Below the pieces are notes generated by a model that worked only from the letters and a program-made list of their open reading frames with translations, did no database searches and was not told where the DNA came from. A stretch of DNA of 11,748 bases from an uncultured Gammaproteobacteria bacterium (lineage in GTDB: Bacteria; Patescibacteriota; Patescibacteriia; UBA1544). Positions 2,911 to 8,614 of this stretch are shown one piece after another. Positions within the stretch are counted from its first letter, which is position 1. Every line of letters begins with the position of its first letter. The position numbers were made by a program, and so were the translations under genes. The DNA lies in contig CAZZDA010000033.1 of assembly GCA_964652585.1 (NCBI GenBank), positions 1 through 11,748 of the forward strand. Reading direction: 5' to 3'.

Positions 2911-2969
2911 TTGTTTGACGGTTTCCGGCTTTCGGCGCCCGGCCTTCGGAATGAGTTATCCACTGGACA

Positions 2970-3018
2970 ACACAACATCTTGTGGTATACTCCTTGTGGA
3001 TACCACTATATATTGTGT
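2970..3018 (+). promoter_or_regulatory. Two NrdR-box-like 16-bp near-palindromes flanking a TATACT -10-like hexamer upstream of nrdJ
   Basis: Box 2 at 3003-3018 ('ccactatatattgtgt') matches 15 of 16 positions of the published NrdR-box consensus acaCwAtATaTwGtgt. Box 1 at 2970-2985 ('acacaacatcttgtgg') matches about 13 of 16. Box starts are 33 bp apart, about three helical turns. A TATACT hexamer sits between them at 2986-2991. The nrdJ ATG follows at 3049. Confidence 0.5.
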
Positions 3019-3048: not shown

Positions 3049-5406
3049 ATGATACCGGGACAGAACAAACAAGAACTTGACCAAAAAACCTTAACATGGT
3101 TTGAGGGCGATGAGTTGCGAGCTCGCGTCTATCAAGAAAAATACGCTCTGAAAGACATGAGCGGCGATCGTGTAGAATCTCTTCCAACCGAGATGTGGCG
3201 GCGCGTGGCGCATGAGATAGCGACGGCTGAGAATATCTCTGACAAGCAAAAAGAATGGGAAGAAAATTTTTATTGGCTTTTGGAGGATTTTCGTTTTGTG
3301 CCGGGGGGTAGAATTCTCTTTGGTGCGGGACAAGAGCGTAAAACAACGCTACTCAATTGTTATGTAATCCCAATGAAGACAGACTCCATTGAGAGTATTT
3401 TTGATTGGTGCAAAGAAGCCGCGCGCACTTATAGTTATGGAGGCGGTGTCGGCGGTGACATCGGTGTTTTAAGACCAAAAGGCGCGCCTGTTAATAATTC
3501 AGCCATTGTTTCTACCGGCTCGGTGTCTTTTATGGATGTTATGTCGGTAACAACCGGCACCATCGGGCAGGCCGGCAGGCGCGGAGCGCTTATGATCACC
3601 ATGCCGGTTGATCATCCTGATATTGAAGAATTTATTATGGTGAAGCGTAATTTGGATAAAGTGCGCTTTGCCAATATTTCGGTGCGCGTCACGGATGAGT
3701 TTATGGAAGCGGTTGAGAATGATACCGATTTTGAGCTGAAGTTTGTCAACAAAAAGGTTGATGTGCGGAAAACCATACGCGCGCGTGATCTTTGGGAGAC
3801 CTTGGTTGAATCTGCGCATGGACACGCAGAGCCCGGACTTCTTTTTTGGAGCCAGATGGAGAAATATTCTACCACACAATATAATGGCATGGAAATTCTT
3901 TCTACCAATCCTTGTTCGGAAATTCCGCTTGACCCATACGGTTGTTGCTGTTTGGGGAGCTTGAATTTGGCAAAATTTGTAAATAATCCTTTTATGAGCG
4001 ATGCGGGACTTGATTGGGATCGAATGGAAAAGGCGTTACGATACGGCACTCGCTTTTTAGATAATGTATTGACTTACAATGAAGATAAGCACGCGTTGGA
4101 AGAACAAAAACTCGCCTCGCGACGCTCACGCCGTATCGGTGTTGGTTTTATGGGTCTTGGCGATATGCTCATTCAGCTAAAACTCAAATACGATTCTGAA
4201 GAAGCAATTGCGTTTATTGATACGCTTTTTGATTGGATGAAGAATATTGTCTATGACGAGAGTGTGAATTTAGCTCAAGAAAAAGGCACATTTGAAGCGT
4301 GGGATAAAGAGAAGCACATGAGCCAACCGTTTTTACAAGAACGAGTACATGCAAAAGTGCTTGCGCGCATAGAGCAGCACGGTCTTCGCAATGCCGCGCT
4401 TCTCACCATTCCTCCAACAGGGAGTATTGCCATGCTTGCCGGAACCACTTCCGGTGTTGAGCCGATATTCGCGCTGTCCTATACGCGCAGATCCGAATCG
4501 CTCTCACAGGAATTTTTTAAAGTCTATCATCCGCTTGTCAAACAGTATATGGAGCAGGAAGGATTGGAGGACGAAGAACAGTTGCCGGAATTTTTTGTTA
4601 CTTCGCATCAAATTGATCCTTATATGCGAGTGAAGATGCAGGCTGCCATGCAGAAACACATTGATCATGCAATTTCTTCTACCATCAATTTACCGGAAGA
4701 TATCAGCGTAGAAGAGGTAAAAAATATTTATTTCCAAGCTTGGAAGCTCGGGTGCAAGGGTATGACAGTATATCGTGAAGGATCGCGCGAGGGTATTTTA
4801 CTGACTGATGAGAAAGTCGCGGAGCAGGAGAAAGGAACAGAAGAGGTACAAGTAGAAGCGCCATCCGCGGTACAAGAGGAAACACATTTGCATCTTGAGG
4901 ATATGGGCAATGGAAAAGGTAAAGGTCAGGTGACGAATGACCAAGAGATATTTGACAGGGACGATCACTTGGTGCTCACGGGGAAAACAGCGAAATTTAA
5001 AATGCAGCAAGGGAGTATTTATATTACAGCAAATCACAACAGCCGTTCAGATCAACTGCAAGAAGTGTTTGTAACTATTGGTAAATCAGGAAGTGAAGAA
5101 AAAGCGTATGCGGACGCTATAGGAAGATTGATCAGCCTCTACCTGCAGCACGGCGGCGGTACGGAAGAGGTGGTACATACGCTCAAAGGCATTAAGGGAC
5201 GATATAATAGCTGGTATCAAGGAAGGCAGCTGCACTCGGTACCGGATGCGGTGGCAAAAGCATTGGAAATGTTTGAACAGAGCGCGACGCCTGTGCGTGA
5301 GACATCTCCGCTTTTTGAGATATGTCCGAAATGTGATCAGCAAAGCGTGGTCAGCGAGAATGGCTGTTATAATTGTAAGAGTTGCGGGTATACCAAGTGT
5401 GAGTGA
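3049..5406 (+). CDS. nrdJ: Class II adenosylcobalamin-dependent ribonucleotide reductase (NrdJ)
   Basis: The predicted protein is 785 aa from the ATG at 3049 ('MIPGQNKQELDQKTLTWFEGDELRARVYQEKYALKD...'). It carries a glycine-rich 'SYGGGVGGD' motif, the active-site region 'NPCSEIPLDPYGCCCLGSLNL', and a C-terminal Cys-rich zinc-ribbon-like tail 'CPKCDQQ...CYNCKSCGYTKC', all typical of NrdJ. The ORF track begins at a TTG at 2911, but that extension overlaps the upstream terminator and regulatory sites and is not conserved-looking. Confidence 0.9.
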   Translation: MIPGQNKQELDQKTLTWFEGDELRARVYQEKYALKDMSGDRVESLPTEMWRRVAHEIATAENISDKQKEWEENFYWLLEDFRFVPGGRILFGAGQERKTTLLNCYVIPMKTDSIESIFDWCKEAARTYSYGGGVGGDIGVLRPKGAPVNNSAIVSTGSVSFMDVMSVTTGTIGQAGRRGALMITMPVDHPDIEEFIMVKRNLDKVRFANISVRVTDEFMEAVENDTDFELKFVNKKVDVRKTIRARDLWETLVESAHGHAEPGLLFWSQMEKYSTTQYNGMEILSTNPCSEIPLDPYGCCCLGSLNLAKFVNNPFMSDAGLDWDRMEKALRYGTRFLDNVLTYNEDKHALEEQKLASRRSRRIGVGFMGLGDMLIQLKLKYDSEEAIAFIDTLFDWMKNIVYDESVNLAQEKGTFEAWDKEKHMSQPFLQERVHAKVLARIEQHGLRNAALLTIPPTGSIAMLAGTTSGVEPIFALSYTRRSESLSQEFFKVYHPLVKQYMEQEGLEDEEQLPEFFVTSHQIDPYMRVKMQAAMQKHIDHAISSTINLPEDISVEEVKNIYFQAWKLGCKGMTVYREGSREGILLTDEKVAEQEKGTEEVQVEAPSAVQEETHLHLEDMGNGKGKGQVTNDQEIFDRDDHLVLTGKTAKFKMQQGSIYITANHNSRSDQLQEVFVTIGKSGSEEKAYADAIGRLISLYLQHGGGTEEVVHTLKGIKGRYNSWYQGRQLHSVPDAVAKALEMFEQSATPVRETSPLFEICPKCDQQSVVSENGCYNCKSCGYTKCE

Positions 5407-5420
5407 CGTTCGCACTACCT

Positions 5421-5552
5421 GTTTCAAAGGCACGTTACAATCCCCAGCGAGAATTTTCACTCTCGTGTATCCTCATTCCTCTCCGACTATCCGCCAGCTG
5501 GCGGAATCGGAGAGACCATGCTCATTTCGGATACACGACGGCCTTTGAAAAC
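5421..5552. other. Nested-helix element about 130 nt long, 15 nt after the nrdJ stop: a candidate structured RNA (3'-UTR element or riboswitch-like) or a MITE-like inverted-repeat element
   Basis: Five stems are visible in the sequence. A long-range closing helix pairs 5421-5431 'gtttcaaaggc' with 5542-5552 'gcctttgaaac' (11 bp) and adds 3 more bp (5433-5435 with 5538-5540) after a single mismatch. Inside it lie a hairpin 5448-5452/5461-5465 ('cgaga'...'tctcg'), the stem 5466-5472/5529-5535 ('tgtatcc'/'ggataca'), the stem 5479-5486/5507-5514 ('ctctccga'/'tcggagag'), and the apical 14-nt palindrome 5491-5504 'ccgccagctggcgg'. No ORF of significance covers it. Confidence 0.35.
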
Positions 5553-5696
5553 AGTAAAGCTCACTAGAAGTGAATAAAAAAATCACACAACTCCGAACGG
5601 CTCTTACAAATATATAACTCACTAAAAATACAAAAAAGTAAAATCCTTGTCGTGCCGAAAAAGGTAAAACAGAAGTAAAAAAGCTGCAGCCGCTTG

Positions 5697-5736
5697 CCCC
5701 GTACCAAACAAAGTGAAACAAAGCTTTGGTACGGGG
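5697..5736. repeat. Perfect 12-bp inverted repeat (hairpin) with a 16-nt loop, followed by a second 8-bp hairpin at 5760-5782
   Basis: The stem 'ccccgtaccaaa' (5697-5708) pairs with 'tttggtacgggg' (5725-5736). The second hairpin pairs 'cacccctc' with 'gaggggtg' across the loop 'ccaaaaa'. Neither is followed by a clean T-run, so they are not classical terminators. Confidence 0.5.
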
Positions 5737-5793
5737 TAACAAAACAGATATTCCCTTGGCACCCCTCCCAAAAAGAGGGGTGTTGTGGGAAAA

Positions 5794-5823
5794 GAGTTAA
5801 CTCTTGAATTAACTCTAGAGTTA
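5794..5823. promoter_or_regulatory. Two TTAA-centred palindromes (candidate operator) overlapping a putative pduO promoter
   Basis: A perfect 12-bp palindrome 'agagttaactct' lies at 5794-5805 and a perfect 14-bp palindrome 'taactctagagtta' at 5810-5823. They share the half-site AGAGTTAA/TTAACTCT and are 4 bp apart. A -35-like TTGAAT (5804-5809) and a -10-like TAAGTA (5826-5831) fall within or next to them. The pduO ATG is at 5843. Confidence 0.4.
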
Positions 5824-5842
5824 CATAAGTATTTCTTTAGGT

Positions 5843-6394
5843 ATGTCTATCTACACAAAAACAGGAGATAAAGGAGAGACGGGATTGACTGGTGGAAAAC
5901 GTGTATCAAAGCGTAGCTGCAACATCGCGGCGATCGGTACGGTTGATGAGCTAAACGCTATGTTGGGTGTTGCGCGTACACATGCGGGTGATAGCACAAT
6001 AGCGGAGCTGCTTAAAAAAATACAAAACGATTGTTTTGTATTGGGCGCTGACTTGGCAGCCCCCTTGGAATTGAAAGACAAAGTTACGCCGCGTATTACA
6101 CAGGAGCATATCAAATTTCTTGAAGAGCAGATTAACGCATTTTCCAAAGACTTACCGGAGCTCAATCATTTTATACTACCAGGTGGCAATATGCTTGGTG
6201 CGCATCTGCATCTAGCACGTGCAGTCTGCCGTCGTGCAGAGCGAAAAGTTGTTGCTTTTGAAAAACAAGAACGCATCAATCCTTTGAATAAAATGTATTT
6301 GAACCGTCTTTCCGACCTTCTTTTTACACTTGCACGTTGGGTAAATTTGCAAGAGGGGGTAAAAGAAGAAGAGTGGAATACCCCCCTTCGCTAA
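5843..6394 (+). CDS. pduO: ATP:cob(I)alamin adenosyltransferase, PduO type (MMAB family)
   Basis: The 183-aa ORF starts 'MSIYTKTGDKGETGLTGGKRVSK', the hallmark PduO-type N-terminus (Cob_adeno_trans fold), and its length and helical-bundle composition are typical of the family. Confidence 0.88.
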   Translation: MSIYTKTGDKGETGLTGGKRVSKRSCNIAAIGTVDELNAMLGVARTHAGDSTIAELLKKIQNDCFVLGADLAAPLELKDKVTPRITQEHIKFLEEQINAFSKDLPELNHFILPGGNMLGAHLHLARAVCRRAERKVVAFEKQERINPLNKMYLNRLSDLLFTLARWVNLQEGVKEEEWNTPLR

Positions 6395-6438
6395 AGCTAT
6401 GGAGGGGTTGTGTCATACTATAAATAAAGATGAGGCAC

Positions 6439-6484: not shown

Positions 6485-7072
6485 TCATGCTTGAGTGATG
6501 ATATACCCATGTTGGGTGCAATATGTTTTTGAGAGGATGTGATGGCACGAAACGCACTCTACTTGTCGACATCTCGCGTTTGTAGCAATGAAACCGAAAA
6601 GTAGATATCGTTTCATATAAAGTGTCGGACCGTGTTCAGATAATCTGTTGTCTCGCATGCAACTTGGACATACATGTGGAGTTGGTATAACACATGCTTC
6701 ACCTCCGCCACTCTTTCTTGAGAACAGTACTACAAACCATTTCCACAACCATGGCAGAAAATGCCTTATGAGATGAGAAACGATTTGTTCTATTTCTTCC
6801 TTATTCTTCACCCACCTGCGGTAATCAAAGGAGGTCTCGCAGTTCGCGCAGAGAAAATCTTCCCACAAGACGTTTGCAGGTATGGAGGTAAAAAGAGTGA
6901 AATACCCGCGTCTTCGATGCATGAAACGTCGTTTGCCGCACCGATTGCAGCAAATTCCTGCATTAAACTTCTTTTCTTCAATGGTGTGTATTGCAAAAAA
7001 AGCCACAACCCTTTTCCACATATGAAGTAACAAGCTGTAAAAGGTGTTACGGACAAACAAAAGAGATTTCAT
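6485..7072 (-). CDS. Hypothetical protein of 195 aa with four CxxC motifs (two putative zinc ribbons) and hydrophobic segments
   Basis: The ORF is open from 7120, but the probable start is the ATG at 7072 ('MKSLLFVRNTFYS...'), which is preceded by the strong Shine-Dalgarno sequence 'gagggaga' 6 nt upstream. CxxC pairs occur as 'CCNRCG'...'CANCE' and 'CPSCM'...'CVSCHH', each pair separated by roughly 30-37 residues. The protein is W/F/R-rich, with the hydrophobic stretches 'LPWLWKWFVVLF' and 'VVAFFAIH'. It has its own promoter and terminator. Confidence 0.55.
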   Translation of the reverse strand: MKSLLFVRNTFYSLLLHMWKRVVAFFAIHTIEEKKFNAGICCNRCGKRRFMHRRRGYFTLFTSIPANVLWEDFLCANCETSFDYRRWVKNKEEIEQIVSHLIRHFLPWLWKWFVVLFSRKSGGGEACVIPTPHVCPSCMRDNRLSEHGPTLYMKRYLLFGFIATNARCRQVECVSCHHILSKTYCTQHGYIITQA

Positions 7073-7120
7073 TGTATTCTCCCTCGTGAAAAGAGCATGA
7101 ATGAAAGAACGAATGGACAT

Positions 7121-8380: not shown

Positions 8381-8614
8381 ATGCAGTCGATCTTTATTTT
8401 TGTCGTGGATCAAAGAGGAGGAGGCGTCATGGAAACAAACTGTTTTGTGTGCCGGATATGTCATTGCAGTGATGAGATGAAAGAGAGGTGTACTTGTGGC
8501 AAGGGATGTTCTCACAAGAGGGTGGTGGCATTGATCGGCTTTGCCGCCGCAACCAGCCTTATAACGGCTTTTGGAGATGTGTCCTCACTGAATGAATATC
8601 TTTTGCTCCATTGA
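8381..8614 (+). CDS. Small Cys-rich protein with a C-terminal transmembrane helix, possibly a zinc-finger anti-sigma-like or metal-binding membrane protein
   Basis: The ATG at 8381 is preceded by 'aaaggag' with an 8-nt spacer. An in-frame ATG at 8429 ('METNCFVC...') is preceded by an even stronger 'ggaggagg' with a 4-7-nt spacer. Seven cysteines are clustered in 'CFVCRICHCSDEMKERCTCGKGC', followed by the hydrophobic helix 'VVALIGFAAATSLITAFG'. The stop at 8612-8614 overlaps the SMC upstream region. Confidence 0.5.
   Translation: MQSIFIFVVDQRGGGVMETNCFVCRICHCSDEMKERCTCGKGCSHKRVVALIGFAAATSLITAFGDVSSLNEYLLLH

Follow-up and report, generated by a model that had tools for sequence, protein, structure and literature searches.

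Stable stem-loops in intercistronic regions or 3' untranslated regions are known to stabilise bacterial mRNAs, as in the case of the REP hairpins, for example those of malE-malF in E. coli, and of the hairpins of the puf operon in Rhodobacter. The REP sequences, at about 35 nt, are short, and are present in hundreds of copies per genome. Palindromic sequences in bacterial genomes may also be MITEs, such as the IS630-derived elements with their TA duplications and the Correia/NEMIS elements. To our knowledge, gene regulation in the reduced genomes of the Patescibacteria is almost unstudied, and a full-text literature search returned nothing on elements like the one described below in CPR bacteria.

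The locus considered here lies within a window of 11,748 nt, by which is meant the whole stretch of DNA that was analysed, and consists of nrdJ, the gene for a PduO-type cobalamin adenosyltransferase (ATR), and the spacer between them (Table 1). A preliminary description, made from the letters of the sequence, had drawn attention to a nested palindromic element in a 436-bp gap between a B12-dependent ribonucleotide reductase and a B12 adenosyltransferase, and this setting is confirmed both by the protein domains and by the gene coordinates. The element begins 10-15 nt past the nrdJ stop codon and is separated by 290 nt from the ATR start codon; the spacer as a whole retains the A-rich plus-strand bias of the plus-strand genes that flank it, a compositional hint at the plus strand. 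The reading that we prefer, tentatively and with a probability of about 0.4, is that the element functions in cis as a lineage-restricted RNA structure of the nrdJ-ATR intercistronic spacer and protects or processes the 3' end of nrdJ. With regard to the upstream gene itself, the best NrdJ homologues beyond a Parcubacteria relative with 82% identity are only 56-61% identical, and many are labelled Nitrososphaerota or Nitrososphaerales (archaea), labels which suggest that nrdJ may have reached the clade by horizontal transfer.

Table 1. Features of the nrdJ-ATR locus, in window positions (L105, a metagenomic contig with a homologous locus, is introduced in the text)
Feature	Position	Strand	Evidence or remarks
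Promoter-like site upstream of nrdJ (TGGACA, 16 nt, TG-n-TATACT)	2964..2991	+	
nrdJ, upstream gene	3049..5406	+	Ribonuc_red_lgN/lgC and TSCPD domains
Whole imperfect palindrome, multi-helix, three-way junction	5416..5556	+ (strand tentative)	Folds, helix list
Closing helix, 5' strand, TAC-C-TGTTTCAAAGGC-A-CGTT	5416..5436	+	Pairs with 5537-5556
Side hairpin CGAGA / TCTCG, 8-nt loop	5448..5465	+	Pairs 5448-5452/5461-5465
Long arm	5465..5536	+	Helix list
Segment homologous to L105 1-63	5517..5580	+	Helix 3' strands and 24-nt unpaired tail
Closing helix, 3' strand, with bulged A5548	5537..5556	+	Homologous to L105 21-39
Conserved tail AAAGCTCACTAGAAGTGAATAAAAA beyond the palindrome	5557..5580	+	20/24 nt identical in L105
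A-rich unstructured linker	5581..5639	+	Unalignable between lineages
PduO-type cobalamin adenosyltransferase (ATR), downstream gene	5843..6394	+	Cob_adeno_trans domain

The five helices that had been proposed are all present at coordinates 5416-5556, as judged from the sequence and the helix list. The closing helix, initially given as 14 bp with one mismatch, has its core at 5420-5431/5541-5553, where a single A is bulged at 5548, and is extended inwards by 5433-5436/5537-5540 and further out by 5416-5418/5554-5556; its pairs are all Watson-Crick with the exception of U5436-G5537. The side hairpin was found where it had been described, on the left arm only, which makes the palindrome asymmetric. 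Along the long arm, a stem proposed as 7 bp (5466-5472/5529-5535) proved to be of 8 bp (5465-5472/5529-5536), and it is followed by a 3-bp stem (5474-5476/5518-5520), by the expected 8-bp stem (5479-5486/5507-5514), and at the apex by a 6-bp hairpin (5490-5505) that contains the palindrome CCGCCAGCTGGCGG, perfect over 14 nt at 5491-5504 as claimed and 16 nt long if T5490 and A5505 are counted. The three-way junction that had been envisaged corresponds to the minimum-free-energy fold of the plus strand.

It had also been asserted that random DNA would not produce such a structure, and comparison with shuffled sequences agrees: as plus-strand RNA the element reaches -59.4 kcal/mol, whereas 200 dinucleotide shuffles gave -32.0 +/- 3.7 and none was as good (z -7.4); as minus-strand RNA it reaches -67.5 kcal/mol, 8 kcal/mol better than the plus strand (z -6.4). 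When 140-nt windows were slid along the whole contig, the element was the most stable segment on the minus strand and ranked second on the plus strand, behind a block of the same spacer (5681-5820). An assembly artefact was considered and ruled out, as the palindrome is imperfect, a diverged homologue exists, and an identical spacer is present in the independent Logan assembly of run SRR8146440, so that the element is not the product of one assembler.

The fold has a further property that bears on the level at which the element might act. On the plus strand 49 of the 50 pairs are Watson-Crick and one is G-U, and the minus-strand fold gains 6 G-U pairs that correspond to A-C mismatches on the plus strand. 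Such near-pure Watson-Crick pairing, with folding on both strands, is more often seen in palindromes that act as DNA, or in inverted repeats of recent origin, than in an evolved RNA. One could therefore envisage a cruciform or a protein-binding palindrome acting as DNA, for example as a recombination- or replication-related site; the symmetry of Watson-Crick pairs, a significant fold as single-stranded DNA (z -5.5 with DNA parameters), and the abundance of other palindromes in the adjoining spacer are all compatible with this idea. We nevertheless regard it as quite improbable, as long asymmetric bulges, for example the one of 28 nt at 5437-5464, would be unexpected in the operator of a dimeric protein and no recombinase, relaxase or replication gene is found nearby.

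The clade, as represented in public data by NrdJ and ATR homologues, comprises three lineages: that of the window; one Parcubacteria species from Crystal Geyser (CG; loci L002, L097-L104 and L106-L109), whose NrdJ is the 82% identical one mentioned above; and a single 3.2-kb JGI contig, Ga0114931_10069874 (L105), which was found by a pattern search for a conserved block downstream of the element. This contig ends inside the element and retains the 3' strands only. The synteny between CG and the window is complete (transketolase, PfkB, nrdJ, spacer, ATR, Band_7), but the element is absent from CG, where about 30 nt separate the nrdJ stop codon from the conserved block, which starts with AAAAATCTTGTCGTGCC. 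A possible remnant of the element in this 30-nt spacer was not significant, since 931 of 1000 shuffles scored as well. CG retains both nrdJ and ATR along with the remainder of the spacer, so that the element is dispensable. Its absence there had led to the view of an orphan insertion, a view that was overturned by the homology with L105.

A covariance model of the element gave a weak match at L105 1-45, at the contig end, and a local alignment of window positions 5525-5580 with L105 9-63 showed 43 of 56 nt identical (77%) with one gap, at a score of 50 against 18 +/- 2.5 for shuffles (maximum 32; z about 13). The bulged A5548 is deleted in L105, and five of the seven substitutions in the paired 3' strands are transitions. 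Between the window and L105, saturation is seen at the four-fold degenerate sites of the ATR and Band_7 genes (identities of 0.29-0.38), and first codon positions are 0.77 identical; an identity of 77% over the 56 nt is thus conservation above the neutral rate. In terms of sequence, the part of the element that survives in L105 is as conserved as constrained coding positions, and the linker at 5581-5639 is unalignable. For ATR and Band_7, the proteins of L105 and CG are 72% and 76% identical, versus 69-70% with the window, and four-fold identities are 0.44-0.51 versus 0.29-0.39 with the window, which gives the gene tree (window,(L105,Crystal Geyser)). Given this tree, the simplest account of why both the window and L105 have the element is one of ancestral origin and a single loss in CG; the element was probably ancestral, constrained, and lost once. 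The L105 homology and the saturation of neutral sites together favour a constrained, vertically inherited element. The upstream sequence of L105 offers no analogous structure, positions 1-165 being not unusually folded (z -0.9).

The same comparison bears on the notion that the conserved letters encode a small protein, either in a 54-aa frame at 5403-5567 or in a frame ending at TGA 5546-5548. Two plus-strand frames are indeed open across the element, the TGA is common to the window and L105, and in one frame the changes are conservative. However, no homologue was detected among 5.8 billion proteins or in six-seed scans, gene callers place no ORF here, and no credible start codon or ribosome-binding site is apparent; moreover, the substitutions do not favour third codon positions, an indel of 1 nt disrupts the frame, and conservation runs 32 nt beyond the shared stop codon. 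A coding role was accordingly rejected as exceedingly improbable.

A separate observation concerns the surroundings of ATR, where the inserted small gene differs from lineage to lineage, so that the neighbourhood of the spacer has the look of an insertion hot spot. In the window this is a minus-strand gene (6485-7120) for a 211-aa protein with a sub-threshold match to the SinI restriction endonuclease, in CG a minus-strand gene for a 124-aa protein (L002 8765-9139), and in L105 a plus-strand gene for a 135-aa protein rich in CxxC cysteine pairs (321-728).

If the element acts as RNA, the question arises from which strand and from which promoter it is transcribed. Scans for simple consensus matches detected no promoter-like (sigma-70-like) or terminator-like sites on either strand of 5300-5950. 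The earlier suggestion that the element is not a simple terminator is in keeping with this, and the element has no U-tract, its closing helix being followed by GUAAAGCUCAC, as would not be expected of an intrinsic (Rho-independent) terminator. From the lack of such sites between the two genes we infer that nrdJ and ATR form a single transcription unit and share one transcript, and it is most likely that the element is transcribed on the plus strand within it. The promoter-like site upstream of nrdJ (Table 1) has the joint top score in the window, 10/12, tied with eight other sites, but is alone among these top scorers in having a TG before the -10 hexamer; it precedes the nrdJ ATG (3049) by about 58 nt. 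A terminator-like hairpin (AAAACCAAG...CTTGGTTTT) followed by a T-rich run was noticed by eye at about 2880-2908, after the phosphatase gene, which it would close, and was not listed by the scanner.

The alternative that the element is an independently transcribed small RNA, possibly from the minus strand and antisense to the 3' flank of nrdJ, draws on the more stable fold of the minus strand with its extra G-U pairs, and on the conserved 24-nt tail, which in minus-strand orientation lies upstream, at the place expected of a promoter. Against it stand the lack of promoter-like or terminator-like sites on both strands, the lack of any Rfam match, and the absence of the element from the sister lineage. 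In addition, the L105 substitutions fit pairing on the plus strand better: assuming unchanged 5' partners, four of the seven are pairable on the plus strand and two of the seven on the minus strand. The five transitions among the seven and the deletion of the bulged A5548 likewise speak for a plus-strand RNA. We consider a separate small RNA unlikely, and a plus-strand structure within the nrdJ-ATR message remains the preferred reading.

Could the element then belong to a described RNA family? At the gathering score, Rfam 15 returned two tRNAs only for the whole window. With the threshold relaxed to E<=10, the best hits in 5300-5950 (651 nt) and 5400-5600 (201 nt) scored 11-15 bits (E 1.3-10) and belonged to unrelated families, and the cobalamin, TPP, purine, c-di-GMP, 6S, and SRP models had no match in either segment. 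Nothing relevant was found by Rfam in the homologous spacers of L105 and L002. The preliminary description, which had seen no fit to the cobalamin, TPP, purine or c-di-GMP riboswitches and had proposed an Rfam search, is upheld on this point.

These results weigh on the proposal that the element is a ligand- or protein-responsive cis-regulatory RNA, responding for example to a cobalamin-related signal and controlling ATR. In favour of such a device one may cite the three-way-junction architecture, the location between two B12-related genes, and two short stretches that look, by eye, like the B12 box (GAGACC-A-TGC) and like GCCACUG (GCCAGCUG). The element thus shares with the cobalamin riboswitches (RF00174, RF01482, RF01689) a B12-related neighbourhood, a multi-helix junction, and these two motifs. 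Yet the cobalamin models gave no score at all, for which reason the resemblances were dismissed as chance, and no other riboswitch family scored at E<=10 over the 201 nt; the element lies 3' of nrdJ and not in a 5' leader, 290 nt from the ATR start codon and lacking a neighbouring expression platform; in L105 a further gene stands between the element and ATR; and CG keeps both genes without the element. Control of ATR by a ligand is for these reasons very improbable. A likeness to 6S RNA (RF00013) may also be drawn, in that the element is likewise long, irregular and rod-shaped (about 150 nt), a large unpaired region lying between the closing and apical stems. In the element, however, this region is one-stranded (28 nt opposite 0 nt) and therefore provides no open-promoter mimic, and there is no model match, promoter, or terminator.

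A more serious competitor is the view that the element is a palindromic mobile or ex-mobile insert, MITE- or REP-like and with no function of its own, that, with a preference for the site, came into this one spacer independently in the two lineages, or that was inserted long ago. The preliminary description had named the inverted-repeat core of a miniature mobile element among its options, and the terminal inverted repeats that this would require do exist (CCTGTTTCAAAGGC and GCCTTTGAAAACAG; 5418-5431 versus 5541-5554, 12-14 bp with one bulge). Like bacterial MITEs, the element is 130-140 bp long, folds over its entire length into a hairpin of near-pure Watson-Crick, strand-symmetric pairs, has a TA at either flank in the window (5416-5417 and 5555-5556), and is present in some relatives and absent in others at the orthologous site; the spacer is moreover a hot spot for other insertions, namely the 124-aa CG gene and the 135-aa L105 gene.

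Other observations speak against the MITE option or lend it no support. No convincing target-site duplication was found around the element, the relatives offering no empty site that aligns, and the right-hand TA is GA in L105. Homology between the window and L105 does not end at the terminus but continues for 24 nt past the right arm, to 5580, which is a misfit for an element whose ends are set by its inverted repeats. The surroundings contain no transposase, there is no parent IS, and two independent gains would be less parsimonious than one loss. Nor was a second copy detected, whether in the window (11.7 kb of genome), in about 700 kb of fetched loci that include all relatives (about 100 kb) and were scanned with a covariance model of the element, in JGI metagenomes and viral contigs (IMG/VR) queried with six degenerate 24-nt seeds from the open frame of the element, or in phage and plasmid collections searched by blastn; spurious ORFs lying over other copies were likewise missing from the collection of 5.8 billion proteins. 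These copy searches are to be read with the rest of the genome lying outside all the DNA collections, the GTDB collection being without the window's own genome (no self-match). The terminal-repeat pattern TTTCAAAGGC-N90-120-GCCTTTGAAA occurs at 92 loci in GTDB representative genomes, which are alike in the pattern alone; by blastn and the covariance model they show no likeness outside it, and they were set aside as chance matches. With neither extra copies nor a convincing target-site duplication, the MITE reading is without positive support. We hold a mobile origin to be rather unlikely, though more likely than the other alternatives to the preferred reading of a constrained intercistronic RNA.

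The pattern scan did bring to light a genuine palindromic repeat family in the Spongiibacteraceae MAG DATIED01, about 130 nt long, with the ends TGCCTGAGTTTTTCAAAGGCC...GGCCTTTGAAAAACTCAGGCA and at least 4 copies on three contigs (L067 75-184 and 391-500; L054 5406-5515; L078 2493-2602), one of them inverted inside. This family is unrelated to the element, with which it has only the forced 10-mers in common, and its detection indicates that the scan is able to find such families.

The spacer contains a second non-coding segment, which is present in all three lineages (window 5640-5792; L002 8404-8520; L105 152-262). Its order is AAAATC(C)TTGTCGTGCC, a variable hairpin, AAAACAGA, a hairpin at 5758-5784 of the form GG[C][A/G]CCCCTC-CCAAAAA-GAGGGG[T/C]G, and a tail, TTGTGGGAAAA. 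A 31-nt stretch composed of the CCCCTC-CCAAAAA-GAGGGG hairpin and this tail is the same in all three lineages apart from one covarying pair, which closes the hairpin and is A-U in the window and G-C in CG and L105. Identity at every codon position between lineages that are otherwise saturated rules out constraint at the protein level alone. No Rfam family matches the block, which is more strongly conserved than the focal element and is arguably the better candidate of the two for a conserved functional nucleic-acid motif. As a minus-strand gene separates the block from ATR in CG, the block travels with the 3' end of nrdJ.

One may go further and regard the element with its tail (5416-5580) and the block (5640-5792) as parts of one structured RNA of a new class, confined to this clade of Parcubacteria and with no Rfam relative, that would couple the expression or processing of the AdoCbl-dependent reductase to that of the adenosyltransferase, for instance as a processing switch that responds to a protein or a corrinoid. 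This is a speculative extension, and we think it decidedly unlikely.

Several smaller features of the same region may be recorded. At 5695-5738 the window has a perfect 12-14-bp hairpin (CCCCGTACCAAA / TTTGGTACGGGG, 16-nt loop), and at this site the relatives have a 5-bp hairpin, TGCGG-GACG-CCGCA; the window hairpin is either a stem that varies within a single RNA or another palindromic insertion, one specific to the window. The block hairpin has on its 3' side an arm, GAGGGG, that is Shine-Dalgarno-like in all three lineages and is followed 4 nt on by GTG GGA AAA, which opens short ORFs (MGK...) of 28, 7, and 13 codons (window 5775-5871, L002 about 8500-8535, and L105 about 230-280, respectively). 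The 5' arm, CCCCTC, would sequester the Shine-Dalgarno-like sequence, and in the window the short ORF overlaps the ATR start codon; this ORF may serve as a leader peptide or in translational coupling, or it could be due to chance. Four AGAGTTA/TAACTCT half-sites at 5793-5823, 20-50 nt upstream of the ATR start codon, form the palindromes AGAGTTAACTCT (5793-5804) and TAACTCTAGAGTTA (5810-5823), which are absent in the relatives and represent a candidate operator. Finally, a hairpin of the window lineage only (CCCCTTC...GGAGGGG, 6381-6412) spans the ATR stop codon and is followed by TTGTG, an arrangement that echoes the GAGGGG-TG-TTGTG tail of the block 5640-5792.

How might the element itself act? 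Its roughly 45 stacked base pairs would constitute a stable block right behind the nrdJ stop codon, one that could shield the nrdJ segment of the transcript against 3'-to-5' exonucleases, serve as a double-strand processing site, or both. By analogy with the REP or puf-type intercistronic hairpins, the nrdJ message would then outlast the ATR message and stay above it in abundance. Among the options first listed for the element (stability element of the 3' UTR, cis-regulatory RNA, small RNA, core of a mobile element), the structure itself is real and the 3'-UTR or intercistronic RNA is the best supported, by virtue of the L105 homology and the saturated neutral sites, although its role as stabiliser or processing site, and hence its effect on the mRNA, is a predicted one. 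The conserved tail at 5557-5580 is a feature that a pure stem-loop barrier model leaves unexplained.

Were the element indeed to stabilise or process RNA, it would join the very few cis-acting RNA elements described in Patescibacteria, and it would bear on the balance that a B12-scavenger strikes between its only ribonucleotide reductase and the enzyme producing that reductase's cofactor. The significance is limited by the occurrence of the element in two lineages only and by its dispensability in a third.

Returning to the described systems, the closest parallel is with the REP and puf hairpins, with which the element has in common a very stable hairpin directly after the upstream stop codon, a probable operon, the lack of a U-tract, and a downstream gene that plausibly needs lower expression. 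In comparison with REP sequences, however, the element is large (about 140 nt), branched, apparently single-copy, and equipped with a conserved unpaired tail, and its stabilising effect is a prediction. The likeness to intercistronic stabilising hairpins is an analogy of position and stability only. In kind, the element takes its place among gene-proximal structured RNA or palindromic elements, and is not categorically new.
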